Shown one piece after another: positions 7,893-43,527 of a DNA stretch of 64,000 nucleotides. The stretch's first letter is position 1; the number at the start of each line of letters is the position of its first letter. The stretch covers positions 992,001 through 1,056,000 of the forward strand of contig CAVVUN010000015.1 of the NCBI GenBank assembly GCA_963751455.1, written 5' to 3'. The stretch is from Nitrospirota bacterium. Lineage in GTDB: Bacteria; Nitrospirota; UBA9217. The translations under genes and the position numbers were made by a program. The notes beneath the pieces were generated by a model, which worked only from the letters and a program-made list of their open reading frames with translations, was not told the DNA's origin and did not search any database.

Positions 7893-8183
7893 GTGCCGAG
7901 ATCAGTTAAAAAAGGCCCTTTTATCGAAGAAAGCCTCTTGAAAAAAGTGGAGGCGATGAATACGGCCGGCGAAAAAAAGATTACGAAAACATGGTCGCGA
8001 CGGTCCATGATCAGTCCTGATTTTGTCGGCCACACGCTTGCAGTCCATAACGGCAAGAAATTCATTCCGGTTTACGTGACGGAAAACATGGTTGGACATA
8101 AACTCGGAGAGTTTTCTCCGACCAGGACTTTCAGGGCGCATGGCGGATCAAAAGCCGCTGAAAAGACGACGGCGCCCAAGTAA
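7893..8183 (+). CDS. rpsS: 30S ribosomal protein S19
   Basis: [21 protein letters not shown]. Confidence 0.99.
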
Positions 8184-8225
8184 TCTGTCTGCACACCGGC
8201 CCCGATTTTAGAGTGAGGACGACAA

Positions 8226-8555
8226 ATGGAAGCAAGCGCAACTGCAAGACACATACGAATCACGCCGCGCAAGGCGCGACAGGTAGTGGATCTGATCCGC
8301 GGCAAGCGGGTGGGAGACGCGATTAATATTCTTACCTTCACTCCGCTCCATGCCGCACGGATTGTGAAGAAGGTTCTGGATTCTGCGGTAGCAAACGCAG
8401 AGCAGAAAAAGGTGGGTGACCTCGACTCGTTGACGATTGCGCAGGCATACGTGAACCAGGGTGTTACGATGAAGCGCATGAGAGCACGGGCGATGGGTCG
8501 CGGCAATACTATCAGAAAGAGAACCAGCCATATTACGGTGGTGCTTTCCGCGTAG
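8226..8555 (+). CDS. rplV: 50S ribosomal protein L22
   Basis: RARAMGR...[10 protein letters not shown]. Confidence 0.99.
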
Positions 8556-8575
8556 AACTGACGGACGGAGGAATA

Positions 8576-9220
8576 ATGGGACAGAAGGTTCATCCTATCG
8601 GGCTTCGGCTCGGAATCATAAAAACATGGGATTCTCGCTGGTTCTCACAGAAGAATTACGCGACGCTACTCCACGAGGATATCAAGATACGGTCGATAGT
8701 GAAAGAGCGCCTGATGCACGCAGGCGTATCGAAGGTGGAGATCGAGCGGGCCGGGCAGAAGGCCAAGATCAATATTCATACCGCCAGACCGGGAATTATC
8801 ATCGGGAAAAAGGGCGCCGAAGTAGATAAGCTCAAGAAAGACCTCGAAGCCATGACCGGCAAGCAGATGTATATCAATATTCAGGAAATCAGAAGGCCGG
8901 AACTGGATGCTCAGCTTGTCGCCGAAAATATCGCTCTTCAGCTGGAGCGCAGAATTGCTTTCCGCAGAGCCATGAAAAAAGCAGTTACCTCGGCCCTTCG
9001 GCTGGGCGCGCTCGGCATCAAAATAACCTGCGCAGGGAGACTGGCAGGGGCGGAAATTGCAAGGACTGAGTGGTATCGCGAGGGAAGAGTGCCGCTTCAT
9101 ACGCTCCGCGCAGACATTCAGTACGGCTTCTTTGAAGCTAAAACCACAATGGGACAAATCGGCGTAAAGGTGCTGATCTACCGCGGTGATGTGCTTCAGC
9201 CGCCTACCGCAGCAGCGTAA
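8576..9220 (+). CDS. rpsC: 30S ribosomal protein S3
   Basis: [25 protein letters not shown]. Confidence 0.99.
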
Positions 9221-9255
9221 TTTATTCGTACATCCCGGAATAAAGGACTGGTATC

Positions 9256-9672
9256 ATGCTAGCACCAAAAAGAGTAAAACACAGGAAGATGCATAAAGGA
9301 AGACGGACCGGCACGGCATATCGGGGAGCTGAAGTCAGTTACGGGGAGTATGGCCTCAAGGTCATGGAGCCCGGCTGGATCACCAGCAGGCAGATTGAGG
9401 CCGCCCGTATCGCGATGACACGCTATGTCAAGCGCGGAGGAAAGATCTGGATACGCGTTTTCCCGGACAAGCCGATCACAAAGAAGCCCGCGGAAACGCG
9501 TATGGGCAAAGGCAAGGGAGCGCCCGAATACTGGGTAGCTGTTGTCAAGCCGGGACGGGTCCTGTATGAAATGGGCGGCGTAGATGAGTCAGTGGCAAAA
9601 GAGGCCTTTCGCCTGGCAGCTTATAAACTGCCGGTTGCCACGAAATTCGTTTCCCGGGAGGCGGAGCTATGA
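9256..9672 (+). CDS. rplP: 50S ribosomal protein L16
   Basis: [12 protein letters not shown]. Confidence 0.99.
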
Positions 9673-9872
9673 AGACGACCACTGCCAGGGATTTGCGTGA
9701 TTTGTCCAGTGAAGAACTGGTTGCCAAGGCGACAGATCTGAAAAAGGAATTGTTCAATCTGCGGGTGCAGCAGGCGATGGGACAGATAGAGAACCCGATG
9801 CGCTTGAGGCTGCTCCGTAAGGATATAGCCAAAACAAAAACCGTGTTAAAGGAAAAGTATGGCCGAGTCTAA
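9669..9872 (+). CDS. rpmC: 50S ribosomal protein L29
   Basis: ELFNLR...NP..LR...KDIA; operon position. Confidence 0.97.
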
Positions 9873-10128
9873 CGAATCTAAAAAGCGTAAAACGTATACA
9901 GGGCAGGTGGTCAGCGACAAAATGGACAAGACCGTGGTGCTTGCGGTCACGAGGCGTATCTCTCATGCAAAGTATACCAAGACCATAAATCGCACCACCA
10001 AGTTCAAGGTCCATGATGAAAAAAATGAGTGTAAGGTTGGCGATGTTGTACGGTTTATAGAAACGCGCCCGCTTTCCAAGGAAAAACGTTGGACGGTTCT
10101 CGATATCGTCGAGAAAGCCAAGCAATAA
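9859..10128 (+). CDS. rpsQ: 30S ribosomal protein S17
   Basis: [18 protein letters not shown]. Confidence 0.98.
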
Positions 10129-10172
10129 CCACGATCATGTATAATTCGAAAACTCTTTCTTGAGGATGAGAT

Positions 10173-10541
10173 ATGATTCAGCAGCAGACGGTATTAGATG
10201 TCGCCGATAACTCCGGCGCGAAAAAAGTAATGTGCATCAAAGTGCTTGGCGGGACTCGAAAGCGGTATGCGAGCCTGGGCGATGTTATCGTCGTGGCGAT
10301 CAAGATGGCCATACCTGAAGGTCAGGTCAAAAAAGGCACCGTTGCGAAGGCTGTCGTGGTCCGGACAACCAAAGAGGTGCGCCGCCAGGACGGATCATAC
10401 ATAAAATTCGACCGCAATGCTGCTGTATTGATAAACAATGCGAACGAACCGATCGGAACACGTATTTTCGGACCTGTGGCGCGTGAGCTTCGCAAAAAGA
10501 ACTTCATGAAAATAATTTCGCTTGCGCCTGAAGTGCTGTAA
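10173..10541 (+). CDS. rplN: 50S ribosomal protein L14
   Basis: [27 protein letters not shown]. Confidence 0.99.
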
Positions 10542-10545
10542 ACGT

Positions 10546-10723
10546 GGGAATCAGGTAAAACGTTATTTTACCATCTCCTGAGAAACAGGAGAAGGGAATC
10601 AAGGAAAAGCATAGACTCATTATCGTACCATCTCCTTGAAGCGTCAGGAGACGGGAATCAAGGAAAAGCATAGACTCATTATCGTACCATCTCCTTGAAG
10701 CGTCAGGAGACGGGAATCAAGGA
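10546..10723. repeat. 59-bp tandem repeat (2 identical units, a partial third unit and a degenerate 48-bp first unit)
   Basis: Unit GGGAATCAAGGAAAAGCATAGACTCATTATCGTACCATCTCCTTGAAGCGTCAGGAGAC starts at 10594 and 10653, partial at 10712. Confidence 0.9.
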
Positions 10724-10735
10724 CAGGATCAGAAA

Positions 10736-11047
10736 ATGCAGATAAGAAAAAACGACAATGTGATGGTGGTCTCCGGCAAGGAGAAGGGTAAAAAGGGCAG
10801 AGTGATTGCAGTCTACCCGGGCACCAACAGGGTCCTCATAGAGAAGCTGAACTTGATCAAAAGGCACACGAGGCCGAACCAGCAGCTCCGGCAGGGCGGC
10901 ATCGTGGAGAAGGAAAGTCCGATTTCGATATCGAATGTCGCGCTGATTTGCGCTAAATGCGATAAACCGACGACGGTGTCCCGGCAGGCTCAGGGCGAGG
11001 GACCGAGGGTCAGGGTCTGCAGGCAGTGCGACGCAGCCATCGATTAA
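10736..11047 (+). CDS. rplX: 50S ribosomal protein L24
   Basis: KOW motif DNVMVVSGKEKGKKG, GGIVEKESPI. Confidence 0.98.
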   Translation: MQIRKNDNVMVVSGKEKGKKGRVIAVYPGTNRVLIEKLNLIKRHTRPNQQLRQGGIVEKESPISISNVALICAKCDKPTTVSRQAQGEGPRVRVCRQCDAAID

Positions 11048-11091
11048 CGGACAACTGTCGGACAAGAATGCGGAAATTAGGATAGGGAACT

Positions 11092-11811
11092 ATGGCGGAT
11101 AAAAAAGATAAGAGCAAGGACGTCAAAAGCAGCGATCAGAAGAAAGGTTCTTCTGCCGCACCCAAGGCCGTTGCCAAGCCGAAGGCGGGCGCAAAGGCAG
11201 TGAAAAAAGAGGGAAAGCCCGAAGGTGGTGTTCAGGAGCCGGGTCAAAAGACCGCACCGGTTCGGATACCGACACCTCGTCTGAGGCAGAAGTATCACGA
11301 CGTTGCAGTGCCGGCGATGATGAAGGAATTCAGTTACAAGAATCCCATGCAGGCGCCCAGACTCGTAAAGGTCGTGCTCAACATGGGTATGGGTGAAGCG
11401 ATTACCAATGCAAAAGCACTGGATTCCGCAGCCGCTGAACTCGGGAAAATAACGGGACAGAGGCCGGTCATTACCAAGGCAAAGAAATCGATAGCAACTT
11501 TCAAGCTGAGAACAGGAATGCCGATCGGCTGCATGGTGACACTCAGGCGTGAACGGATGTATGAATTTCTGGATCGTTTCATCAGCGCAGCGCTTCCGCG
11601 CATACGAGATTTTAAGGGTTTATCCTCCAAGTCTTTCGACGGAAGAGGAAATTACACGGTCGGCATCAAGGAGCAGGTGATCTTCCCGGAGATCGAGATC
11701 GACAAGGTGGATTCGATCCACGGGATGGACATCGTGATTGTTACCACTGCGAAAACGGATGAAGAAGGAAGGGCACTGCTCGGTCATCTGGGTATGCCGT
11801 ACCGGAAGTAA
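11092..11811 (+). CDS. rplE: 50S ribosomal protein L5 with a ~60-aa N-terminal extension
   Basis: Core [20 protein letters not shown]; Lys/Ala-rich leader before PRLRQKY. Confidence 0.97.
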
Positions 11812-11842
11812 GCCGCCGTCAGGCGGACGCGATGGAGGAATA

Positions 11843-12028
11843 ATGGCAAAGAAGTCTTTAATAGCAAAGGCAACGAGAGCGCCGAAGTTCAAGGTGCGTG
11901 CATACCACCGCTGTCCGCTGTGCGGACGGTCGAGGGGGTATCTCAGAAAATTCGATATGTGCAGAATCTGTTTCAGGAACCGGGCGCTCAAGGGAGAGAT
12001 TCCCGGCGTTATAAAGGCAAGCTGGTAG
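11843..12028 (+). CDS. rpsN: 30S ribosomal protein S14, zinc-binding type
   Basis: MAKKS...RCPLCGR...MCRIC...KASW after a GGAGG RBS. Confidence 0.98.
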
Positions 12029-12046
12029 GTAAAAGGGGCTGAACCA

Positions 12047-12442
12047 ATGATGACCGATCCGATCGCGGACATGCTAACGCGCATCCGCAATGCCAGTAAG
12101 GCAAAACATGAAAAAGTAGATATTCCTTCCTCAAAGCTGAAGGTTGAGATTGCGAAGATCCTGAAGGATGAGGGGTTTGTCAAGAACGTCAAGCTGGTAA
12201 AAGACCGGAGACAAGGCTTGATCCGCGTATATCTTAAATATACAGACGAAGAGGTGCCGATTATCCAGGGTCTGAAGCGGATAAGCAGGCCGGGTTGTCG
12301 CGTCTATGCCGGTAACGACGCCATCCCGAAAGTCCTGGCAGGATTGGGAACCGCCATTCTGTCAACACCCAGGGGAATCCAGACGGGTAAACAGGCGAAG
12401 AAGGACAATGTGGGCGGAGAAGTGCTCTGCCATGTCTGGTAG
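12047..12442 (+). CDS. rpsH: 30S ribosomal protein S8
   Basis: [20 protein letters not shown]. Confidence 0.99.
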
Positions 12443-12484
12443 CTTATTACGGTCGTAGAATTCAGGAGTTGTGTAGGAGCTGTT

Positions 12485-13033
12485 ATGTCGAGGGTTGGTA
12501 GAAAACCTATAGAAATGCCGTCCGGTGTAGAGGCAAAGCTGGAAACGGGAAAAATAACCGTCAAAGGCCCACTGGGAGAAATCACGCAGACTGTAAATCC
12601 GAAGCTCACGATCAAGAAGGAAAACAATCAGCTTCTGATTTTGCGGCCTTCTGACCAGAAGATTTACCGCGAGCTCCATGGGCTGACCAGAAACCTGGTT
12701 GCAAACATGGTACTTGGCGTCAGCAAAGGATTTCAAAAAACGTTGGACATCTCCGGCGTCGGTTTCAAAGCCGCTGCGCAGGGGACGAATCTGATGCTCA
12801 GCCTCGGATTCTCCCATCCGATCGTATATCCGTTACCCAAGGGCGTCAAGGCGACCGTCGATGCCAAGCAGACGCAAATAACCCTGAAGAGCGTCGACAA
12901 GCAGTTGGTCGGCCAGATAGCGGCTAATTTGAGAAGCCTGAAAAAGCCTGAGCCATATAAAGGCAAGGGTATCAAGTATAGTAACGAGGTTATACAGCGC
13001 AAGGAAGGCAAGGCCGGAAAGGGCGGAAAGTAA
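12485..13033 (+). CDS. rplF: 50S ribosomal protein L6
   Basis: MSRVGRKP, PEPYKGKGI. Confidence 0.99.
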   Translation: MSRVGRKPIEMPSGVEAKLETGKITVKGPLGEITQTVNPKLTIKKENNQLLILRPSDQKIYRELHGLTRNLVANMVLGVSKGFQKTLDISGVGFKAAAQGTNLMLSLGFSHPIVYPLPKGVKATVDAKQTQITLKSVDKQLVGQIAANLRSLKKPEPYKGKGIKYSNEVIQRKEGKAGKGGK

Positions 13034-13111
13034 GAAAGTTAATGCTGATAGTTCATCGCAATCTTTTGACACAAGCTAGAGCATAAGTTGATTTGATGGG
13101 AGAGTGAAATT

Positions 13112-13474
13112 GTGGCACACACCAAAGTTAAAGCCAGACAGAAACGGCATGCAAGAATAAGAAGAAAGGTGTTCGGCACGCCCGCCAAACCCCGCTTGAG
13201 CGTCTATAAGAGCTTGAGCCATATCTATGTGCAGCTGATAGACGACACCAGCGGCAGGACGATCATCGCAGCGTCCTCGGCGGAGAAGGCGGTCGCGACA
13301 GGTATGAAGCACTGCGGCAACGTAGAGGCCGCAAAAAAGGTGGGTGCCAGCATAGCAGAGCGGGCGGTGGACAAAAATATTAAAGATGTAGTTTTTGACA
13401 GGGGTGGATATCAATACCACGGGTGTGTAAAGGCGCTTGCCGAGGCTGCCCGTGAAAAAGGTTTGAAGTTCTAA
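13112..13474 (+). CDS. rplR: 50S ribosomal protein L18
   Basis: [12 protein letters not shown]. Confidence 0.98.
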
Positions 13475-13538
13475 GGAAACCCGGCATTTTTGCCATAAAT
13501 GAATTTGTTGTTTAACAGGGTTAATTTCGGAGGCGGCA

Positions 13539-14048
13539 TTGGCAGAGCGATATAAAAAAGACGCAGAAGAAGGCGACGGCCTTAAAGATAAACTGGTCTA
13601 CCTGAACCGGGTGGCCAAGGTGGTCAAAGGCGGTAAGCGCTTCAACTTTACCGCTCTCGTAGTCGTCGGCGATGGCAAAGGTAAAATCGGCGTCGGCAAA
13701 GGAAAGGCAGCCGAGGCGCCCGTGGCAATCAAAAAAGCAGTGGAGCGGGCAAAGAAAAATATGGTCCTCGTTTCCTTAAAGGGAGACACGATCCCGCACG
13801 AAGTGCTTGGGCACTATGGGGCCGGCAAGGTTTTGTTGAAACCGGCATCGGAAGGTACCGGATTGATTGCGGGCGGCGCCAGCCGGTCGGTGCTGGAAGT
13901 AGTCGGCGTCCGAAACGTATTGTGCAAATCCCTCGGCTCGAGCAACCCGCACAACGTTGTCAGCGCGACCATCAAGGGATTGACCAGTTTGAGAAGCGCC
14001 GAACAGGTAGCAGCACTGCGCGGCAGATCGGTGGAGGAGCTTGGCTAA
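13539..14048 (+). CDS. rpsE: 30S ribosomal protein S5
   Basis: [13 protein letters not shown]; TTG start. Confidence 0.98.
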
Positions 14049-14242
14049 TGGCGAAATCCGACGCAAAAAAAATAAAAATTACGCTCGTAAAAAGCGGGAT
14101 CGCCAGGCCCGGGAAGCACAAGGTTGTTTTAATCGGACTCGGTCTTAAAAAACTCAATCATTTCGTGGTTCGTCTGGATACGCCGGAAATCCGGGGCATG
14201 ATTAACAAAGTTTCGCACCTCGTAAACGTTGAAGAAGCGTAA
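14048..14242 (+). CDS. rpmD: 50S ribosomal protein L30
   Basis: IKITLVKS...LGL...[11 protein letters not shown]; ATG overlaps the rpsE stop. Confidence 0.96.
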
Positions 14243-14278
14243 TATAAAAAACTTCAGAATGACGGTTGTGATAAAACT

Positions 14279-14719
14279 ATGAGACTAGAAGAACTGAAGC
14301 CCGCAGAAGGGGCAACAAAAAAAGCAAAAAGGGTCGGCAGGGGAGTCGGTTCAGGATCCGGCAAGACTGCGGGAAAAGGTCATAAAGGCCAGAAGGCACG
14401 ATCCGGCGGTGTGAAGGGCGCGGGTTTTGAAGGCGGGCAAATGCCGCTTCAGCGCAGAATACCGAAAAGAGGATTTACAAACATATTCCGGAAGGAATAT
14501 GCAATTTTGAATCTTGACGACCTCGCAAAGCTTGCAGGTTCCGATGCGGTAACGCCCGAGATGCTTCTTGAGAAGGGTTTGATTGACGATATGAAGAGCG
14601 GGCTGAAAATTCTAGGTATGGGGGAATTGAAGACAAAGCTTACCGTGCGTGCACACAAGTTCAGCAAGAGCGCCGTACAAAAAATCGAGGCTGCAGGCGG
14701 AAAGGCAGAGGTGATTTAA
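14279..14719 (+). CDS. rplO: 50S ribosomal protein L15
   Basis: [18 protein letters not shown]. Confidence 0.99.
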
Positions 14720-14722
14720 CTC

Positions 14723-16021
14723 GTGTTCTCCGCTCTCAAGAATATATTCAACATCCCCGAGCTCAGAAAGCGGGTTATTTTCACGCTATTGATGATGGCG
14801 GTGTACCGCGTTGGCGCGCATATCCCGACGCCCGGAATCAAGGGCGAAGCCCTCAGTCAATATCTGCACCAGGCAGCTTCCGGCCTGATGGGTTTTTTTG
14901 ACATGTTTTCCGGCGGAGCATTGTCCCGAGTGACGATTTTTGCGCTTGGCATTATGCCCTATATAACTGCCTCCATTGTGCTGCAGCTTTTGACTGTCGT
15001 GATACCCCGGCTTCAGGCCCTGGCTAAAGAAGGTGAGGCGGGCAGAAAAAAGATCACAGAATATACACGGTACGGAACGGTTCTGATTTCCGGTTTCCAG
15101 TCCTTCTGGATGGCGGTAGGTATCGAAAAGATGGGAGATGGAGCGTTTGTGGATGCTCCGGGATGGTCGTTCCGCATTCTTACGATGATTACTCTTACCG
15201 CGGGCACAACCTTCATTATGTGGCTGGGTGAACAGATTACCGAGCGCGGCATCGGCAACGGTATTTCGCTTATTATTTTTGCCGGAATTGTCGCGGGGTT
15301 TCCCAGTGCGGTGCAGAATACCATCGGGCTGGTTCGTTCCGGCGAAATTTCGTATTTTATGGTTTTTCTGATCATGGGGCTGATCATCGCCGTTGTTGCA
15401 GCGATCATTATTATGGAGCGCGGCCAGAGAAAAATTGCTGTCCAATATGCGCAAAGAATGGTCGGCAGGAAAATTTATAAAGGGCAGAGCACACACTTGC
15501 CGCTCAAGATTAATTCTGCGGGTGTCATTCCGCCGATATTCGCATCATCCATACTGCTGTTCCCGGCCACTATTGCCGGGTTCGCACAGGTAGAGTGGAT
15601 CCAGTCAATCGCAAAGCAGCTTTCACCCGGACAAGTCCTCTACACGACTGTATATGTGGCAATGATCATATTCTTTGCCTATTTTTATACAGCGATCGTT
15701 TTTAATCCGGTAGACATTGCCGAGAATTTGAAAAAATACGGAGGTTTCATCCCTGGAATCAGGCCGGGCAAAAAAACCTCAGATTATCTGTACCGTGTTT
15801 TAACGCGCATTACCCTGGGTGGAGCGCTTTATCTGTCGGCGGTCTGTGTGCTCCCCGACATATTTTACAAAGCGTTTAACGTTCCGTTTTATTTCGGCGG
15901 CACATCGCTGCTTATCGTAATAGGCGTGGCACTCGATACCGTTTCTCAGATCGAGTCCCATTTGATCCAGCGGCATTACGGAGGTTTCCTGAAGGGCGTT
16001 TCAGTCAAGGGTAGACGGTGA
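14723..16021 (+). CDS. secY: Preprotein translocase subunit SecY
   Basis: Multi-TM profile; GIGNGISLIIF, IPGIRPG, FGGTSLLI. Confidence 0.99.
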   Translation: MFSALKNIFNIPELRKRVIFTLLMMAVYRVGAHIPTPGIKGEALSQYLHQAASGLMGFFDMFSGGALSRVTIFALGIMPYITASIVLQLLTVVIPRLQALAKEGEAGRKKITEYTRYGTVLISGFQSFWMAVGIEKMGDGAFVDAPGWSFRILTMITLTAGTTFIMWLGEQITERGIGNGISLIIFAGIVAGFPSAVQNTIGLVRSGEISYFMVFLIMGLIIAVVAAIIIMERGQRKIAVQYAQRMVGRKIYKGQSTHLPLKINSAGVIPPIFASSILLFPATIAGFAQVEWIQSIAKQLSPGQVLYTTVYVAMIIFFAYFYTAIVFNPVDIAENLKKYGGFIPGIRPGKKTSDYLYRVLTRITLGGALYLSAVCVLPDIFYKAFNVPFYFGGTSLLIVIGVALDTVSQIESHLIQRHYGGFLKGVSVKGRR

Positions 16022-16036
16022 CATAGGTCCTGTCCC

Positions 16037-16786
16037 ATGATTATTCTTAAGTCCCATCAGGAGATTGAAAAAATACGCAGTGCGTGCCTGGTTGTTGCAA
16101 CTGTGCTTGAAGATATCCGCGATATTATCAAGCCCGGCGTAACCACGCAGGCCCTCGACGAATTTGCCGAGAAGATAATTGTTTCCTCGGGAGCAACGCC
16201 GGCTTTCAAGGGTTACCGCGGCTACCCGAAGACGCTCTGTACGTCGCTCAATGATCAGGTCGTCCACGGAATTCCCTCAAGAAATGTAGTTCTCAAAGAG
16301 GGAGACATCTTAAGCGTGGATGTCGGCGCCATTGTCGAGGGATTTTTCGGCGATGCAGCAATGACCTTTCCGGTAGGGACGGTTCGGCCGGAAGCCGCGC
16401 GGTTGATCCAGATAACGGAAGAAGCACTGCGGAAGGGTATTGCCGAGGCAAAGCAAGGGAACAGGTTGTTTGACATCTCCAGTGCGGTTCAGAAACATGT
16501 GGAAGCAAACAGGTACTCGGTGGTAAGGGAATTTGTCGGTCACGGGATCGGAAGAAATATGCACGAAGATCCGCAGATTCCCAACTTCGGAGAACCCGGA
16601 CACGGCCCCAGGATAAAGTCTGGAATGGTCTTTGCGATTGAACCGATGGTAAATATGGGCAATAGCCCTACAATCGTATTGGAGGACGGATGGACTGCGG
16701 TGACCGTAGACGGCAGTCTTTCAGCCCACTTTGAGCATACGGTCGCAGTGATGCCTGAAGGACCATGGATACTGACTCGGAAATAA
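16037..16786 (+). CDS. map: Methionine aminopeptidase type I
   Basis: VHGIP, GHGIG, AIEPM, SAHFEHT. Confidence 0.98.
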
Positions 16787-16805
16787 CCATCAGATTAGAG
16801 ACGAT

Positions 16806-17024
16806 ATGGCGAAGGAAGATTCAATAGAAGTACAAGGCACGGTTCTTGAAACACTGCCGAATGCGATGTTTCGCGTCGAAATAGAAAACGGCCATAAGAT
16901 TCTTGCTCATATATCCGGTAAAATGCGAATGCATTTCATAAAGATATTACCGGGAGACAAAGTTACGGTGGAACTTACCCCGTATGACCTTACGCGAGGC
17001 AGAATTACATACCGCTTCAAATAA
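16806..17024 (+). CDS. infA: Translation initiation factor IF-1
   Basis: [25 protein letters not shown]. Confidence 0.99.
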
Positions 17025-17061
17025 CAGAGAGGTTTATAACCTCAACAGAATGGAATTACCC

Positions 17062-17175
17062 ATGAAAGTTCGCTCATCAGTACGAAAAATTTGTCCGAAA
17101 TGCTCTATCATCCGCCGCAAAGGAATTGTGCGCGTTATCTGTGAAAATGCGCGCCATAAGCAGCGCCAGGGTTAG
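17062..17175 (+). CDS. rpmJ: 50S ribosomal protein L36
   Basis: [14 protein letters not shown]...HKQRQG, 37 aa. Confidence 0.98.
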
Positions 17176-17297
17176 GGAAGGACGACTGATTCATTGTAAA
17201 GTGCAAATTGGAAATTGAAATTGTGAAACGAAAATTTGCAATTTAAACTTTACAATTTTTATTATGCAATTCTCGCGAAGCGAGAAATGGAGGAACT

Positions 17298-17690
17298 GTG
17301 GCACGAATTGCCGGTGTTGATCTACCGAAAGATAAAAAGATAGAAATCGGTCTGACCTATATTTATGGTATAGGTCCGGCATCAGCGAAAAAGATACTTG
17401 CTGAAGCAGGAGTCGACCCTGCTACGAAAAGCGGGAGCATTACCGAATCGGATATTGTTAAAATCCGCGCCATTCTCGATCGTAATTATACAATCGAAGG
17501 AGACCTTCGCAGAGACGTAACAATGAACATCAAGCGCTTGATGGATATCGGCAGTTACCGGGGGCTGCGGCATCGCAGGGGCTTGCCTGCCCGGGGACAG
17601 CGAACCAAAACAAACGCGAGAACAAGAAAAGGTCCGAAGAAATCGGCGATGTCAGGTAGAGGCAAGAAAAAAGGAATGTCAAAGAAGTAA
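17298..17690 (+). CDS. rpsM: 30S ribosomal protein S13
   Basis: [23 protein letters not shown]. Confidence 0.99.
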
Positions 17691-17734
17691 GATGGGACAG
17701 CTAAACACGAATTCCACGTGTTTCTCAAGGAGGA

Positions 17735-18112
17735 ATGATGGCCAAGAAGGGTAAAGAGAGAAAGAACGTGGCCAACGGTATTGCGCATATTCATGCATCG
17801 TTCAATAATACGATCGTGACGATCACGGACACAGCAGGAAATGTTATTACGTGGTCGAGCGCCGGCAATAAAGGGTTTAAGGGGTCGCGCAAGAGTACGC
17901 CGTTCGCCTCTCAGCTGGCCGCAGAATCAGCAGCCAAGAAAGCCATGGAGCACGGCATGAGACAGGTGGAAGTGTATGTAAAAGGCCCTGGGACCGGTCG
18001 GGAATCGGCAATCCGCTCCATCCAGGCTGCCGGACTCGAAATTGTGGCGATCAAGGACGTAACTCCTATCCCTCATAACGGGTGCAGGCCGCCGAAACGA
18101 AGAAGGGTGTAG
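17735..18112 (+). CDS. rpsK: 30S ribosomal protein S11
   Basis: [18 protein letters not shown]. Confidence 0.99.
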
Positions 18113-34658: not shown

Positions 34659-35146
34659 TGTTGAACCTCCTGGATGGGACTACCCTGGTTCTACTACGGT
34701 TAAGGATGCCGAATAGGCTATTTTGGTTCGGCAGTGAGACGCATGAAAAGCGTATAATTTTGCGACGTTCTGTAAAGTAATCCGACAGCAATTTCGATGC
34801 CGTTGCCGGGAAGTTTAAGGTATCAATCACTTGCGCGTTTCTCCAACATCATCCCTGGTTGATAGTGTTTCTGAAGGAATCACTTGGTCTTGTACCGGCA
34901 TTCTATCTTTAAAATGATTGTCTCCTATGGAAGCAGTGGACTTCGTGGAAAATGATAAAATCAGTCGATTCTTGTGATATAGCAACCGCCTTGAAACCGC
35001 TTCATGATCCGGCGCATCGCGATAGTGGCTGTAACATCATGAACTGTTCTGTAACGGTGTCCCGGGTATTTAGTGATAAAGTAAAGATGGTTCTCTAAAA
35101 AAGTTTCATCCTATAAAGGAAGCTGCAGTGCTAAACAGTGCGTTTT

Positions 35147-36198
35147 ATGAAACATGAACTGAATAGTGTCGTTAGAATAGACGGTTCTTTCGGCGAGGGT
35201 GGCGGACAGATGCTCCGAACAGCGCTTTCGCTATCCTGTGTGCTCCAAAGGCCATTCGAGATCATCAATATCCGGAAAGACCGTAAGAAACCCGGACTGC
35301 AACCACAGCATCTGACAGCGGTCAAAGCGGCAGCTGCAATCAGCCAGGCCCGTGTAGAAGGGGCCGGATTGTCATCATCATACCTGCGGTTTTCGCCGGC
35401 AGCCGTCCTGAACGGAGAGTACCGCTTCGACGTCTCCGAAAAAAAAGGAGCGCAGGGAGCACCTCGCTCGTTCTGCAGACCGTAATGCTTCCGCTCTGTT
35501 TATCATCTGCGTTCTCCACGGTAACGGTAATCGGCGGTACACATGTGCCTTGGAGCCCGGCATTTCATTATTTAGAACAGGTCTTTTTACCTTTTTTGTC
35601 GGGCACAGGCGTGTCTGTCGATGTTACTCTTGACACATGGGGCTGGTATCCTCTCGGCGGCGGAAAAGTCAGAGCGGAAATACGCGTACTCAAACACATT
35701 AAACCTGTAAAGATTATGGAGAGGGGAGGGCTGAAACGAGTTATCGGAATATCCGCTACCTCGAACCTTCCGAAGGAAATAGGCATTCGGCAGTACAACA
35801 GAACGCTCTCCAACTTGTCGCAAAGAGGAATTGCTGCCGATGTTCGGTTGCCGTACGCACCTTCATCGGGTAAAGGCACTCTGGTCTTTCTTTGTGCCGG
35901 ATTCCAGAACCTGAATGCCGGATTTTTCAGCCTTGGCGCTCCGGGAAAGCGGGCTGAAACAGTTGCTGACGAGGCATGCTCTTACCTGTTTGACTACCTC
36001 GATTCAGATGGAGCGCTTGATCCTCATCTTGCTGACCAGGTTATTCCGTATCTGGCGCTTGCCGGGTCTTCTGAGTTCAGTACAACCAATGTTACCGGTC
36101 ATCTGATTACGAACATCCAGATAGTTAAAGAGTTTTTAAAAATAAACATAGCGATTGAAGGAAAGGAAGGAGAACCAGGTATTATTCGAATCGGGTAA
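35147..36198 (+). CDS. rtcA: RNA 3'-terminal phosphate cyclase, frameshifted near 35440-35449
   Basis: [42 protein letters not shown]; one base missing after the A-run. Confidence 0.88.
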
Positions 36199-37515: not shown

Positions 37516-38823
37516 ATGAAGCCCCGCATACTTCTCGTTAATCCCTGGATCCACGACTTTGCTGCCTTTAATCTTTGGGCGCGCCCGCTCGGTTTGCTCA
37601 AAATCGCCGAGCACCTAAGTCAGTTTGACGTTGAGCTCCTGTTTATCGACTGCACGGATTGCTTCGAGCCCAACCTGTATGGCATCGGAAAGTATAGGTC
37701 CCGAGATAATCAAAAAACCGGAAATAGTAGGGAACGTTCCGCGCCATTTCAAAAGATACGGGATGAGTGTAGATGAATTCAAGGCCTGTCTTCTTTCCTG
37801 CGTGCCTTTGGACCTCATACTTGTGACCTCCGTCATGACGTACTGGTATACCGGCGTACAGGAGACTGTTCGGCACATTCGGGAGTCGGCAGGCTCGGTC
37901 CCGATCATGTTAGGGGGTATTTATCCGACAATCTATCCGGAACACGCATCGAAAAATTCCGGCGCTGACCGTACCTGGGTGGGGCCTCTTGACGATCGGA
38001 TTCATCAGGCTTTGGGAGACTTCGGTCTTGCCCTTTCTCCTGTCCGGCGGCCTCAAAGCTTTGCAGCAATGAATCTCTATTCCCGTCAGCCGTTTGCACC
38101 GCTTCTTACTTCAACGGGATGTCCGTATCACTGCTCCTACTGCGCATCGGGATCATTACACCCTGCATACCGGCGAACACCGGTCACTGATGTCATAGAG
38201 GAAATCGCTGAACTCGCGGGCAGGGGGGTAAAGGATTTCGCTTTTTACGACGATGCGCTGCTGTACGATTCTGGCAATCACATAAAGCCGCTGCTCGAAG
38301 AGATTATCAGACAAGGACTTGTTGTCAGGCTCCATGCGCCCAACGGGCTGCATGCCCGTTATATTAATGATGAACTGGCGGGACTCATGCGGGATGCGGG
38401 GTTCAGGACGATTCGTTTGAGCCTCGAGACAGTTGATCCCGAAAGACAGGAGATGACCGGCGGAAAAGTATTTACGAGCGACCTTGAGGCGTCGGTTAGG
38501 CATCTGCAGAAGCACGGGCTTTACCAAAGACCAAACGGGGTTTACCTGTTATACGGTCTTCCCGGCCAGGGACTTGAGGAAGTCAGAGAGGGAATCCAAT
38601 TTTTGAAACGCCTTCCCGTACGGATTTTTCTTGCCGAGTTTTCGCCGATCAAGGGGCACGGGGTGCTGGGACGACCTTGTTAAGAGGCAGTATCATCCCC
38701 GCGGATCTCGACCCGCTCTTGACGAACAATACGATATTTTCGTTTCTCTATTCACGGTATAACCAGGCAGAAGTCAAACAGATGAAGATCGATGTAGATG
38801 GATATAACTCTACAAAGCGATGA
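37516..38823 (+). CDS. B12-binding-domain radical SAM protein, with at least two frameshifts
   Basis: LLVNPWIHDF...PLGL, GGIYPT, CPYHCSYC, YDDALL spread over ORFs 37516-37776, 37625-38683 and a tail ending at 38823. Confidence 0.8.
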
Positions 38824-38869: not shown

Positions 38870-40079
38870 ATGCAGAATTCGCGGCATGGATGTAGCGCTT
38901 CTCTTCAGCGCCAGAACGATAAGGCTTTTTGCTTACGGCGGGCTCTCGGTCATCCTCGCGCTGTATCTTCATGAAACGGGTCTCAGCGAGCCGAGATCGG
39001 CCTGCTTTTTACGCTGACATTGGCAGGCGACGCCGGAGATTTCGCTCTGGATCACGACCATTGCGGATAGGGTCGGCAGGAGGCGCATGCTCCTTCTTGG
39101 CGCGGCGTCTTATGATAATGGCGGGGATTGTGTTTAGCCTGACCGGAAATCCCGTGCTTCTTATGATAGCGGCCATTATCGGCGTGATAAGCCCGAGCGG
39201 AAACGAGATCGGCCCTTTTCTCTCGCTCGAGCAGGCGGCCCTTTCTCAACTTTTGCCTTCCGAACGGCGGACCCGTATATTTGCCTGGTACAATCTGGCC
39301 GGGTCCCTTGCCGCGGCCGCAGGGGCGCTTGCAGGCGGCTTTCTGTCTCGCGGTTTCATGCAAGCAGGTTTTACTGAGCTTGGATCATATCGGGCGGTCA
39401 TCCTCGGTTACGCCGCATGCGGGGTTGTGCTGCTGGTTCTTTTTCTATTTCTGTCTCAGCGGTGGAAACAGCGAGTACAATCAGGGATGACAAACTTTTT
39501 CTCGGTCTTCACAGGTCCAGAAGAGTTGTAATGAAACTGAGCGCGTTGTTCGCGCTCGACGCATTTGCGGGCGGTTTCATAATCCAGAGCATGGTGGCTT
39601 ACTGGTTCCATGTGAAGTTCGGTCTCGACGCAGGACTTCTCGGAAGCATCTTTTTCGGCGCGAATATACTGGCCGGGCTGTCCGCACTCCTCGCTGCACG
39701 TCTTGCTTCCCGGATCGGTCTTATCAATACCATGGTCTTTACCCATATACCCTCGAACGTGCTTCTCTGCCTGGTGCCGTTCATGCCCACCCTCGGATGG
39801 GCGGTTGCGGTTTTGCTTCTGCGTTTCAGCATATCACAGATGGATGTTCCCACGCGGCAATCATACACCATGGCCGTTGTTTCTCCTGATGAGCGGTCCG
39901 CTGCATCCGGTGTTACTACAATTGCACGTTCCGTTGGTGCTGCAATTTCACCATCCCTGGCCGGGATACTTCTCGCTTATCCGGCACTGATAAGCGCTCC
40001 GTTTCTGGTTGCCGGCGGGCTCAAGATCGTATACGATCTTCTCTTGTACAGAAGTTTCCGGAAAGCGGACGTGCGATAA
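38870..40079 (+). CDS. MFS transporter, with several frameshifts
   Basis: ADRVGRR motif A, ISPSGNEIGPF, SQMDVPTRQSY across shifted frames. Confidence 0.78.
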
Positions 40080-40245: not shown

Positions 40246-42240
40246 ATAAACTATTCAGAAAAGAGAATTCAAAACAAGCCATGGCAGGACGAGGTCCGAA
40301 GGGTCGCAGCGGGTATCCGCAGACGTGTGCTCGAGCATACCATAAATAATAACGGAGGATATCTCAGCCAGGCCTGTTCCGTCAGCGGAAATCCTGTCGA
40401 CTCTATACGTATCGATCATGAATCTGGGAAAAATAGATACGCCGCTCGTACCAAAGCCGTTTCCCGGCGTCCCCGGCCCTCGGAATTCCGGCTATTTTAC
40501 GGGCGGTTTCTTTAACGGTCCGGTTGAACCGGATTTTGATCGTTTTTTTCTCTCCCCGGCGCAATATGCGCTGGTGCTCTATGCCGCCCTGATAGAGACG
40601 GGCAGGATGGCTGAAGAAGGGCTTCTTCAGTTTAACAGGGACGGAAGTTCGGTGGAAATGATCGGCGCTGAGCATTCACCGGGAATGGAATCGATGACCG
40701 GTTCTCTCGGGCAGGGTATAAGTCAGGCCGCGGGTACCGCGCTTGCACGCAAGAAGAAGGGGGAGAGCGGAAGAGTTATTATCTTCATGTCGGACGGCGA
40801 ATTCCAGATCGGCCAGACCTGGGAGGCGCTCCAGACAATGTCCTTTCACAAACTGGATAATGTAATCATCTATGTTGACGTGAACGGCTTTCAATGTGAC
40901 GGAAAGATGTCGGCCGTCATGAATATCGAGCCCCTGGACAAGCGGCTCGAATCGTTCGGCGCCCGCGTCGTCCGACTTGACGGCCACGATATCGAACGCT
41001 TGGCCAAACCGGAAAGATTACCCCCGATGGCCGCCCCCTGGTTGTCGTAGCGGATACCGATGCGGCGCACGGTCTGAATGTACTGAAGGCGCGAGCGCCG
41101 AAAATGCATTACGTGCGGTTTACGAACCAGGAGGAGAAGGGCCTCTATGCAGCCGCGTTCGCTGAATTACGGGGGACGGAACAGGTGCCCGCACAAACCG
41201 TAGAAGAAGACTGAAGGGAAAAAGCATCAAGGTCCGCAAATCGTAACCAGAGTGCATGCAAAAAACCTCGTTCGATGGGCCGCGGATAAACCGAACGTCC
41301 TCGTTCTCTCTGCCGATCTCACGAGCTCTACCGAGATCGACCTTTTTCGTGAGACGTATCCCGACAGGTTTCTTTCCATGGGTATCGCCGAGCAGAATAT
41401 GCTGAGCTTTGCGGGCGGACTGGCAAGAGAGGGTTTCCTGCCGTTTGTCCATACCTTCGCGGTGTTCATCTACAGGCGCGCCTTTGACCAGATAGCCATG
41501 TCCGTTGCCTATCCAAACCTCCGGTACGGATGATCGGTTTTCTTCCCGGCATTACCACGCCGGGAGGCGCGACCCATCAGGCCATTGAAGACATTGCGGT
41601 CATGCGATCGCTCCCGAACATGACTGTCCTGGAATGCGGGGATGCAACCGAGGTTGAGACCGTGCTGGACGTGATCGAGAGGATTGACGGTCCCGTATAT
41701 GTGCGGATGCTTCGCGGCGAGATCCCCCGACTTGTCCTCATCGGAACCAATGGTGCTCCATAAGCCAAGGGTGCTGTCCGAAGGGAGGGAGATCGTTGTG
41801 CTTTCGAGCGGCATCATGACCGAAGAGGCAATGCGGGCGGTTGAGGCACTGAAACGGCGCGGTGTCTCGATTCAACACATGCATATCTCGACGCTAAAGC
41901 CGTTTAACGATCAGCCGATATGGACGCTGTCGCCGGTCGCGCTTCGGCGCTGATCACGATGGAAAATCATACGATCGTCGGAGGACTGGGGCAGCATCAT
42001 TGCGGAAAAGATGGCCGAAGCAAGGGAGTGGCGAAAAAGCTTGTTCAGAGTCGGTCTCCGCGATACTTTCAGCCACGGGGCCAGTAAACAGTATCTCATG
42101 AAGGAGCACCGGATGGATGCGACTTCACTTATCAAGAAGTGGAATTACTGATCGGCCAGAGGCTTGGTATTTCCGAAGATGAACTGGCGCAGACGCATGT
42201 CACTGCCGTACATAGTATGGCAAAAGCCGAGGCGCTGTAG
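40246..42240 (+). CDS. Transketolase-family ThDP enzyme (N- and C-terminal parts, probably one polypeptide; many frameshifts; start uncertain)
   Basis: TGSLGQG, SDGE..GQTWEA...VDVNG, SADL, MGIAEQNM, GATHQ, KPF, MENH; ends AKAEAL*. Confidence 0.82.
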
Positions 42241-42371
42241 CTCAATGTACCCTGCTCTTGCGAAAGCGCGGGCATAAACCACTTGCAGAATTCGGACAGC
42301 GCGGCTGCACGGTCTTAACCTGTTCTTGTTTTATTGTGCCTTTGTGCTTCCGCGGTAAAGGTTTTGAATCC

Positions 42372-43527
42372 ATGATCATCCAAAACACCTGCACTGCTGA
42401 AACTCTCTTTTCAAACGAACGTTTTTCCGTAACGTACCGTTTATTCGGAAACGAGAAGGAAGCACGCACAAAAGCCGCGGACATCTGCATCGAGCAGACA
42501 GTCGAATTTCCGGCGGAAGAGGTGCCGGCAGGGGTCATCAGGGACCACATTTTCGGAAGAGTAGAATCGTTCGAAAAATACGATCCGGAAAGTTATAAAG
42601 CCGTTATCAGCTATGCAGTTGAGATTGCAGCCGGCGAGTTGACCCAATTTATGAACGTGGTGTTCGGAAACAGCAGCATAAAGCCGGGTATCCGCGTGGA
42701 GCATCTTGATCTGCCCGATTCGATGCTTCGCCGATTCAAAGGACCCCGCTTTGGCAGAGAGGGGCTGCGGCGATTACTCAATATACCGAAGCGGCCGCTC
42801 CTTTCAACCGCTCTCAAGCCGATGGGACTTTCGTGCAGGGAACTTGCAGAACTGGCATACAAGTTCGCACTCGGCGGGATGGACATCATCAAGGATGATC
42901 ACGGGCTGACTGACCAATGCTGTTCACCCTTTAAGGAACGCGTCAAGCTCTGCAGCCGAGGCCGTTCAGCGGGCGAGTGAGGAAACCGGATATAGATCAC
43001 TATATGTAGCAAACATAACCGGGCCGAGCCGGGAATACTGCAGCGTGCGAGGATCGCAAGGGAGTCTGGAGCGGGCGGCCTCATGGTTGCGCCGGGACTG
43101 ATCGGTATGGACCTTATGCGCGAAGCTTGTGGACGACGACACAATCAACCTGCCCATCCTGACCCATCCGGCTCTCCAGGGAAGCTTTGTGACCGGCCGG
43201 AACGGCATATCGCATGGTGTTCTCTTCGGTCAGCTTGCCCGCCTGGCAGGAGCGGATGTCACGATTTTTCCTAACTTCGGCGGCAGGTTTTCGTTCAGTA
43301 GGGAGGAATGCAGGGAAATTGTGCTGGCAACGGAATCTTCCATGGGAAATCTGAAATCTATCTTCCCCGCGCCCGGCGGCGGTATGAGCCTTGAGAGAGT
43401 CCCGGAAATGATCGGCACTTACGGTAAGGAAGTGATATTCCTGATAGGCGGCGGGCTTTTCAAGCACGGGCCGGATTTGATCGAGAACTGCAGCTTCTTC
43501 AGGAAGATGATGGATAAAATTAATTAA
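42372..43527 (+). CDS. RuBisCO-like protein (form IV), frameshifted between ~42950 and 43130
   Basis: EQTVE, VFGNSS, LKPMG, IKDDHG, HPALQG, IFPNFGGRF, PGGGM, LIGGGL. Confidence 0.88.

Follow-up and report, generated by a model that had tools for sequence, protein, structure and literature searches.

The window analysed here, a stretch of 64,000 nucleotides from the genome of a Nitrospirota bacterium (GenBank assembly GCA_963751455.1, contig CAVVUN010000015.1), carries a gene for a transketolase-like enzyme dependent on thiamine diphosphate (ThDP), called GGYLSQ family below after one of its motifs, directly upstream of a gene for a form IV RuBisCO-like protein (RLP). From the comparison of this pair with its relatives, we think it fairly probable that the two proteins work together in salvage: the RLP would isomerise a sugar phosphate, and the ThDP enzyme would cleave the resulting ketose to glyceraldehyde-3-phosphate and a free two-carbon unit. 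The RLP would convert 5-methylthioribulose-1-phosphate (MTRu-1P), and probably 5-deoxyribulose-1-phosphate too, into 1-methylthio- (1-deoxy-) xylulose-5-phosphate, and the transketolase-like enzyme would thereby occupy the place that a cupin holds in the Rhodospirillum rubrum pathway. That the cupin and the transketolase-like enzyme take the same RLP product is best supported by their interchange: the two swap as partners on one RLP lineage.

One RLP lineage with two exchangeable partners

The reference system is the methylthioadenosine (MTA)-isoprenoid shunt of R. rubrum and Rhodopseudomonas palustris, which comprises MtnP, MtnA, a DeepYkr RLP (Rru_A1998/RPA2169) and a cupin methylsulfurylase (Rru_A2000/RPA2170). 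According to the same reports, DeepYkr RLPs convert MTRu-1P into 1-methylthioxylulose-5-phosphate (MTXu-5P) and 1-methylthioribulose-5-phosphate (MTRu-5P) at a 3:1 ratio, and the cupin then yields 1-deoxyxylulose-5-phosphate (DXP) and methylthio-glutathione (PMC4958253, PMC5893883). In our trees, where cupin-adjacent RLPs stand in for the R. rubrum and R. palustris proteins, the RLPs partnered by the GGYLSQ enzyme and those partnered by a cupin form one clade (support 95/92 in one tree and 98/96 in a 32-row tree), which stands apart from MtnW (YkrW/MtnW), Photo, OiaX and other sugar-acid RLPs. A 69-row tree was a quick tree, for which 37 out of 79 and 23 out of 81 sequences were hand-picked; the two trees just cited had fewer.

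The active-site signature agrees with this placement. The KDDH motif occurs in 35/36 enzyme-partnered and 23/23 cupin-partnered RLPs, and the two groups have in common Asn123 and a gap at Lys177 (both in all members), Lys175, and a His-Pro pair at positions 294-295. The best PDB match of the window RLP is 3qfw (E 6e-79; next match 2e-51), which shows the same KDDH motif, is also the best match of a cupin-adjacent RLP (E 2e-121), and is, we presume, R. palustris RLP1. The preliminary description of this DNA had likened the RLP to the R. rubrum type on account of its motifs; IKDDHG..DQ, IFPNFGGRF and GGMSLERVPEMIGTYG were all seen in the three-frame translation, and the likeness stands, since the form IV phylogeny places the protein with the cupin-partnered, DeepYkr-like RLPs and not with a sugar-acid (apionate) group. 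OiaX and the related sugar-acid RLPs share the form IV fold with the window RLP but differ from it in being about 27% identical, in reading KDDE and in having His-Arg at positions 294-295, and the window RLP scores 73 bits against the OiaX model NF042437 (cut-off 700), so an OiaX identity was rejected. From clade membership and signature, we infer that the window RLP would act on MTRu-1P as the DeepYkr RLPs do. It would probably act on 5-deoxyribulose-1-phosphate as well, a reaction on which a full-text literature search found no paper.

In a cupin-side sample of 80 metagenome loci retrieved with a cupin-adjacent RLP, the cupin was visible in 61 (49/49 of those whose downstream flank leaves room for 600 bases), and the transketolase-like enzyme was found in none of the 80, many of which are short upstream. 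Conversely, a profile search of 50 enzyme-carrying genomes found no RLP-type cupin: weak matches in 13 of them scored 29-56 bits, as compared with 172-286 bits for RLP-adjacent bacterial cupins (222-286 for those held out of the profile) and 83-112 bits for algal fused ones. A search for longer proteins gave 40 matches, among which are RLP-cupin fusions, one cluster including a Bathycoccus prasinos protein, and nine RLP-enzyme fusions from diatoms (Skeletonema marinoi, Cyclotella meneghiniana), which all keep the family motifs (GGYLSQ itself in 8/9). Fusions of the eukaryote type group in a single clade (100/96), within which the enzyme fusions have a cupin fusion as their sister (100/100); the two kinds of fusion interleave, and the 32-row tree requires no fewer than 3 changes of partner. 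The cupin-partnered RLPs are nested within the enzyme-partnered ones (90/96; 93/91), but as an approximately unbiased test does not reject the enzyme-partnered RLPs as a single clade (p 0.31), no order of partners is established. The algal fusion proteins retrieved, of the Bathycoccus RLP-cupin cluster or the diatom RLP-enzyme type, include P0004, P0028, P0060, P0024, P0040 and P0099; in two further proteins (P0003, P0021) the RLP is preceded by a long N-terminal stretch of repeats without a Pfam match.

Out of 477 confirmed GTDB loci, the best 80 were surveyed as relatives. An RLP gene lies at most 1.2 kb downstream of the enzyme gene in 58/80 of them and at 3.8 kb in one, 11 loci end at a contig edge, and 10 have no adjacent RLP; nine of these ten genomes have an RLP elsewhere, and the tenth (G450) has no RLP match. 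Among 41 Nitrospirota genomes, whose members as relatives are not independent, enzyme and RLP occur together in 17 (one as fragments; identities of at least 71% and at least 61%, respectively) and neither occurs in 24. The pairing is thus not due to chance, and it is conserved across genomes, as the preliminary description had proposed to verify. Carriers occur in Bacillota, Chloroflexota, Spirochaetota, Planctomycetota, Myxococcota and other phyla; the closest relatives of the window enzyme are from Nitrospirota, and the enzyme, mostly split over two genes, is fused in these close relatives. A sample of 400 genomes from the phylum of G041 contained four further RLPs of the cupin- or enzyme-partnered type, three with the enzyme and one with the cupin, which are too few for statistics. 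One Nitrospirota RLP of the same clade (L124:4867-6288, in G040) has a degenerate site (KDDQ, Asn123 to Met) with neither cupin nor enzyme adjoining, and is perhaps non-catalytic.

The substrate site of the thiamine enzyme

The active-site alignment comprised 88 N-terminal and 81 C-terminal halves, with columns fixed by canonical enzymes; the residue positions follow what we take to be the numbering of E. coli transketolase. The closest solved sequences are the split transketolase of Carboxydothermus hydrogenoformans (PDB 6yak/6yaj) and the human one (E ~1e-62). With these transketolases (EC 2.2.1.1; PMC7661550) the GGYLSQ family shares the domain order and the ThDP, metal and activation residues: D155 and N185 (88/88), E411 and R520 (81/81), H261 and H473 are invariant. 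It also keeps the phosphate site formed by S385 (77/81), R/K358 (76/81) and R520. It differs from them in having Tyr for H26 (86/88), Ile for H100 (88/88; the column may be off by one residue, which would make it Met instead of Ile, and in neither case His), a replaced H461 (81/81, Leu in 80), Gly for D469 (81/81) and Pro for the Lys of the SKGH motif (81/81), and in adding an insert of some 30 residues rich in Pro and Gly, a conserved C-terminal tail and a Cys four residues after N185 (the QCDG Cys, 84/88). This Cys stands at the position of Ile182 of the Carboxydothermus enzyme, which contacts the thiazolium ring (PMC7661550). His100 is Phe in DXP synthase (DXS), and its replacement by Leu increases the activity on pyruvate (PMC7661550), an effect also described for E. 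coli transketolase (bioRxiv 10.1101/719906). A hydrophobic residue at this position would fit a donor that lacks the C1 hydroxyl, and the GGYLSQ family offers a natural transketolase-family enzyme with the change that engineers introduce for methyl-ketone donors.

The preliminary description had reported that the transketolase motifs GHxG, SxGH and GHP and the Asp of GEDGPTHQ are replaced in the window enzyme, and the motifs it quoted (GGYLSQ, SPAQY, EMIG, SDGE..N, GIAEQ, TPGGATHQ) were all seen in the three-frame translation. Four substrate-gripping positions are indeed replaced throughout the family, but SPAQY, at the equivalent of His69, is no family signature because H66 is Gln in 58 and still His in 30 of the 88 relatives. 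By these substrate-site features we place the enzyme outside the transketolase and DXS families. Intact halves, scored separately, reach 149 and 220 bits with the NCBIfam transketolase model (cut-off 488) and 32 and 181 bits with the DXS model TIGR00204 (cut-off 466), and the phosphoketolase match is weak (E ~1e-4).

The site nevertheless says less about the substrate than had been claimed. A sister family of split transketolases (36-38% identity, GQGYIGQAL type) on plasmids of Rhizobium, Burkholderia and Pantoea (L239:5938-7811, L240:5959-7781, L241:6004-7858) shows the same changes, with Tyr26, no His100, Leu461 and Gly469. No RLP lies within 6 kb in the three loci read, where the neighbours are LysR, short-chain dehydrogenase/reductase (SDR) and transporter genes. 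The sister family lacks the phosphate residues R358 and S385, and no close solved structure was found for it. Since this RLP-less family has the same replacements, the rebuilt site is the mark of a broader clade and, taken alone, does not identify the substrate; the replacements noted in the preliminary description are real, and the argument that it drew from them for a ketose without C1 hydroxyl is weakened.

Salvage context, proposed reaction and alternatives

Linkage to the known salvage genes was seen repeatedly, in clostridia, Anaerolineae and alphaproteobacteria; among the 80 loci, the flank includes mtnA in 6 and mtnK in 4. The gene order ABC transporter-mtnK-mtnA-transketolase-transketolase-RLP occurs in Clostridium ljungdahlii and, by annotation, on three plasmids of alphaproteobacteria; a fourth plasmid has the order purine-nucleoside phosphorylase-amidohydrolase-mtnA-molybdoenzyme-transketolase-transketolase-RLP. 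Upstream, the alphaproteobacterial operons share a conserved gene whose annotation is bifunctional aldolase/short-chain dehydrogenase (L093:1-1771, L094:1-1838, L098:1-1794). Of the 80 carrier genomes, 50 were checked over their whole length (51 for some counts): mtnA is present in 49/50, 47 of them over the cut-off, and MtnB exceeds its cut-off in 0/51. The co-occurrence that the preliminary description proposed to check (the enzyme with RLP, mtnA and mtnP, and without the cupin) was borne out for the RLP, for the exclusion of the cupin and for mtnA among the carriers, and mtnP is present in the genome of the window; mtnA was not found in the assembly of that genome.

We propose the following reaction. 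ThDP would add to C2 of MTXu-5P, and cleavage of the C2-C3 bond would let glyceraldehyde-3-phosphate leave, thereby retaining on ThDP an enamine that carries CH2-SCH3. This enamine could eliminate methanethiol and so become acetyl-ThDP, from which acetate or acetyl phosphate would form; alternatively, methylthioacetaldehyde would be released. From the deoxy sugar, acetaldehyde would be set free as the two-carbon unit. The flanks of the surveyed loci show no conserved third gene beside the pair, and we therefore expect the products to pass straight into general metabolism.

For the methylthio substrate we lean slightly towards the elimination of methanethiol, a course absent from the preliminary description, over the release of methylthioacetaldehyde. 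Phosphoketolase and the sulfoacetaldehyde acetyltransferase Xsc expel a leaving group from the ThDP enamine in this way, giving acetyl-ThDP, and would be likened to the module in this chemistry; we know of no ThDP enzyme that eliminates methanethiol. Elimination is favoured because the cupin that the enzyme replaces removes sulfur (PMC5893883). It is favoured, too, by comparison with the DHAP (dihydroxyacetone phosphate) shunt, a pathway that uses MtnK or MtnP, MtnA and the class II aldolase Ald2 (PMC10986504, PMC5893883). The module has the same kinase/isomerase front end and, if an aldehyde were released, the same outcome, i.e., triose phosphate and (methylthio)acetaldehyde, but with two enzymes in place of one aldolase. 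As a class II aldolase gene lies at most 2 kb from mtnA in 10/51 carrier genomes, in one case within the locus of the module itself, a non-redundant product is implied. Lastly, DXS occurs in 36/51 carriers, the genome of the window included, and a lyase acting unselectively on DXP would drain the DXP that they make. Against elimination, MetY is over the cut-off in 1/5 and acetate kinase in 2/5 of the genomes tested, neither of them in that of the window; a thioether is presumably not among the substrates of the sister family; and of the 15 carriers without DXS, 11 also lack DXR, so that a deoxy product would there need plain cleavage to acetaldehyde. The 4 others (G472, G473, G489, G493) have a DXR match without a DXS match at E 1e-100, owing to either an incomplete assembly or a supply of DXP derived from the RLP. 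In its most specific and tentative form, our proposal would make the GGYLSQ family a ThDP methylthio-eliminating lyase, which in a single active site, and with no need of oxygen, glutathione or a reductant, would turn MTXu-5P into glyceraldehyde-3-phosphate, methanethiol and an acetyl unit, and the widespread, perhaps even ancestral, partner of the DeepYkr RLPs in anaerobes and diatoms, the R. rubrum cupin being a later swap.

Several observations weigh against the salvage proposal as a whole, beyond the sister family described above. Neither mtnA nor mtnK has a match in the assembly to which the window belongs. In relatives, mtnA and a gcvT-like gene precede copA; at that site, upstream of copA, this genome has a restriction-modification/helicase-like island (G000:C6:1-9950); the gcvT-like gene, like mtnA, is found nowhere in the assembly, and as the island runs to the start of the contig, a loss of mtnA and an assembly gap are indistinguishable. 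Furthermore, mtnA is common in Nitrospirota anyway (36/41), and it is near the module in just the six loci mentioned. The best cupin of the genome of the window is distant (65 bits) and away from the pair, so that a cupin route may yet operate there. Some copies of the module have other neighbours: a galactitol-type phosphotransferase system (PTS) with a glycerol-3-phosphate-dehydrogenase-like gene (L085, also L238), or an SDR gene with an FGGY kinase gene (L096). These copies lack the QCDG Cys, and their contexts suggest reuse on other sugars.

The last contexts raise the question of whether the module degrades some other deoxy- or substituted pentose or pentitol phosphate and is tied to S-adenosylmethionine salvage just sometimes. 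The absence of mtnA from the assembly, the RLP-less sister family and a genome (G496) with two module copies in different contexts would agree with this reading, which we regard as unlikely given that the linkage to mtnK and mtnA recurs in the three groups named, that the same RLP subclade carries the cupin, and that most loci have no transporter or kinase, which fits an internal substrate. We give a slightly lower rank to a true transferase, which would move the methylthioacetaldehyde or acetaldehyde unit from the RLP product to an acceptor such as an aldose phosphate, pyruvate or an aldehyde. Its nearest solved sequences are those of transketolases, the phosphate-site residues are kept, and in one locus (L070) the module is accompanied by Rpe, a dehydrogenase and an enzyme of the LsrF/DeoC family. 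The two residues by which transketolase holds its aldose acceptor, Asp469 and His461, are replaced in all 81 C-terminal halves, and no conserved gene would process a longer deoxy-sugar product; for these two reasons we favour release over transfer.

Two further readings seem far less probable. An alternative DXP synthase, condensing pyruvate and glyceraldehyde-3-phosphate beside the RLP so as to feed isoprenoid synthesis, would account for the hydrophobic residue at His100, which the family shares with DXS, for the DXR match in the four DXS-less genomes, and for the behaviour of an AlphaFold monomer model of an intact relative. In Foldseek searches with this model human transketolase had the best E-value, whereas DXS gave the better overlay and the top TM-score (~0.6 vs 0.4 for transketolase). 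We consider such a synthase very improbable, since the model is weak (pLDDT 66, pTM 0.54) and, as a monomer, would pack the two cofactor domains together, since a bona fide DXS is present in most carriers, most DXS-less carriers have no DXR either, and the family has Gly where DXS keeps the equivalent of Asp469, besides falling far under the DXS cut-off. DXS also keeps the equivalent of His26. Finally, an ordinary transketolase, acting on xylulose-5-phosphate and standing beside the RLP by chance, is what family searches name, though under every curated cut-off. Such a reading is scarcely credible in view of the substrate-gripping positions replaced family-wide, of the strict pairing and fusion with the RLP, and of three other transketolase-family loci in the genome of the window (which has a separate DXS gene, dxs, on contig C2).

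If the salvage proposal holds, the module resembles the MTA-isoprenoid shunt in its RLP (same clade and KDDH signature as the cupin-adjacent RLPs), in its upstream enzymes where these are linked, and in requiring no oxygen-dependent step. It would differ in having a ThDP enzyme for the cupin and C2-C3 cleavage to glyceraldehyde-3-phosphate in place of glutathione-dependent desulfuration to DXP, and it occurs also in genomes without DXR. It would likely be an undescribed oxygen-independent route for recycling S-adenosylmethionine waste. A full-text search, outside which lie most subscription journals, theses and supplements, where an earlier mention is possible, found no paper describing the pairing of the enzyme with the RLP; the main texts of PMC6302742, PMC5893883 and PMC8217296 make no mention of transketolase, nor does that of PMC8217296 mention rubisco-like proteins. 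The disposal of MTA and 5'-deoxyadenosine in strict anaerobes is partly known, and the module is a concrete candidate route, as the carriers surveyed have neither MtnB over the cut-off nor an RLP-type cupin. It would also give a testable function to many DeepYkr RLPs, so far unassigned, across many phyla, including that of the acetogen C. ljungdahlii, and to the fused diatom protein. Should methanethiol be released, a reaction would be added to those of ThDP and an unrecognised source of biogenic methanethiol, or volatile sulfur, would be revealed.

One locus combines the module with microcompartment genes (L235, L089; G498:C74:27000-45000): a class II aldolase gene, mtnA, mtnK, an ABC transporter, shell genes, an aldehyde dehydrogenase gene and transketolase-transketolase-RLP, the shell and dehydrogenase genes lying just upstream of the pair in L089. 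It is possibly an undescribed microcompartment for methylthioribose or 5-deoxyribose; we rejected it as a sign of an aldehyde product, because the aldolase stands with mtnA and mtnK in the same locus. The window itself has no class II aldolase gene; the one gene of this family in its genome is elsewhere, in a frame of 408 codons, and Nitrospirota have similar genes whether or not they carry the module.

The gene pair in the window

The spans of the two co-directional genes were defined by frameshift-aware alignment of the window DNA to intact Nitrospirota relatives.

Coordinates of the gene pair (positions in the window)
Feature	Position	Strand	Basis
Transketolase-like ThDP enzyme, GGYLSQ family, fused (PP + Pyr + C-terminal domains)	40246..42240	+	Alignment to intact relatives; start codon not placed
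Form IV RLP, KDDH type, clade of cupin-partnered (MTRu-1P 1,3-isomerase-type) RLPs	42372..43527	+	Alignment to intact relatives

Both genes are in pieces, with 11 small indels in total over 3.1 kb. The transketolase-like gene, 78% identical to its relative L014, has eight (near 40381, 41010, 41206, 41520, 41734, 41922, 41995 and 42138) and no stops; the RLP gene, 75% identical to L024, has three (near 42957, 43037 and 43128) and no stops. The window enzyme keeps 255 of the 261 columns invariant in 16 intact fused relatives, two others falling on breaks and four differing, as compared with 0-7 differing columns when intact members are left out in turn, and the RLP retains 48/48. The unrelated genes nearby are also split (RtcA, 35138-36198; B12/radical SAM protein, 37516-38683; major facilitator superfamily (MFS) protein, 38929-40079), and the cover by long open reading frames is 0.12 over 34.7-43.6 kb of the window, against a genome median of 0.68. 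Because stops are absent, invariant residues are kept, unrelated neighbours are split and this cover is low, the indels are probably sequencing errors of a poorly polished stretch. That both genes are pseudogenes in this genome, whatever the function of the family, would be suggested by so many indels and by the missing mtnA; the same four features make this an unlikely reading, if not a negligible one.

The pair is flanked by the RtcA, B12/radical-SAM and MFS genes and by a response-regulator/GGDEF gene, and no cupin gene adjoins it, in agreement with the arrangement given in the preliminary description. A second region of low cover by long open reading frames (0.13) lies near window positions 8000-18000.

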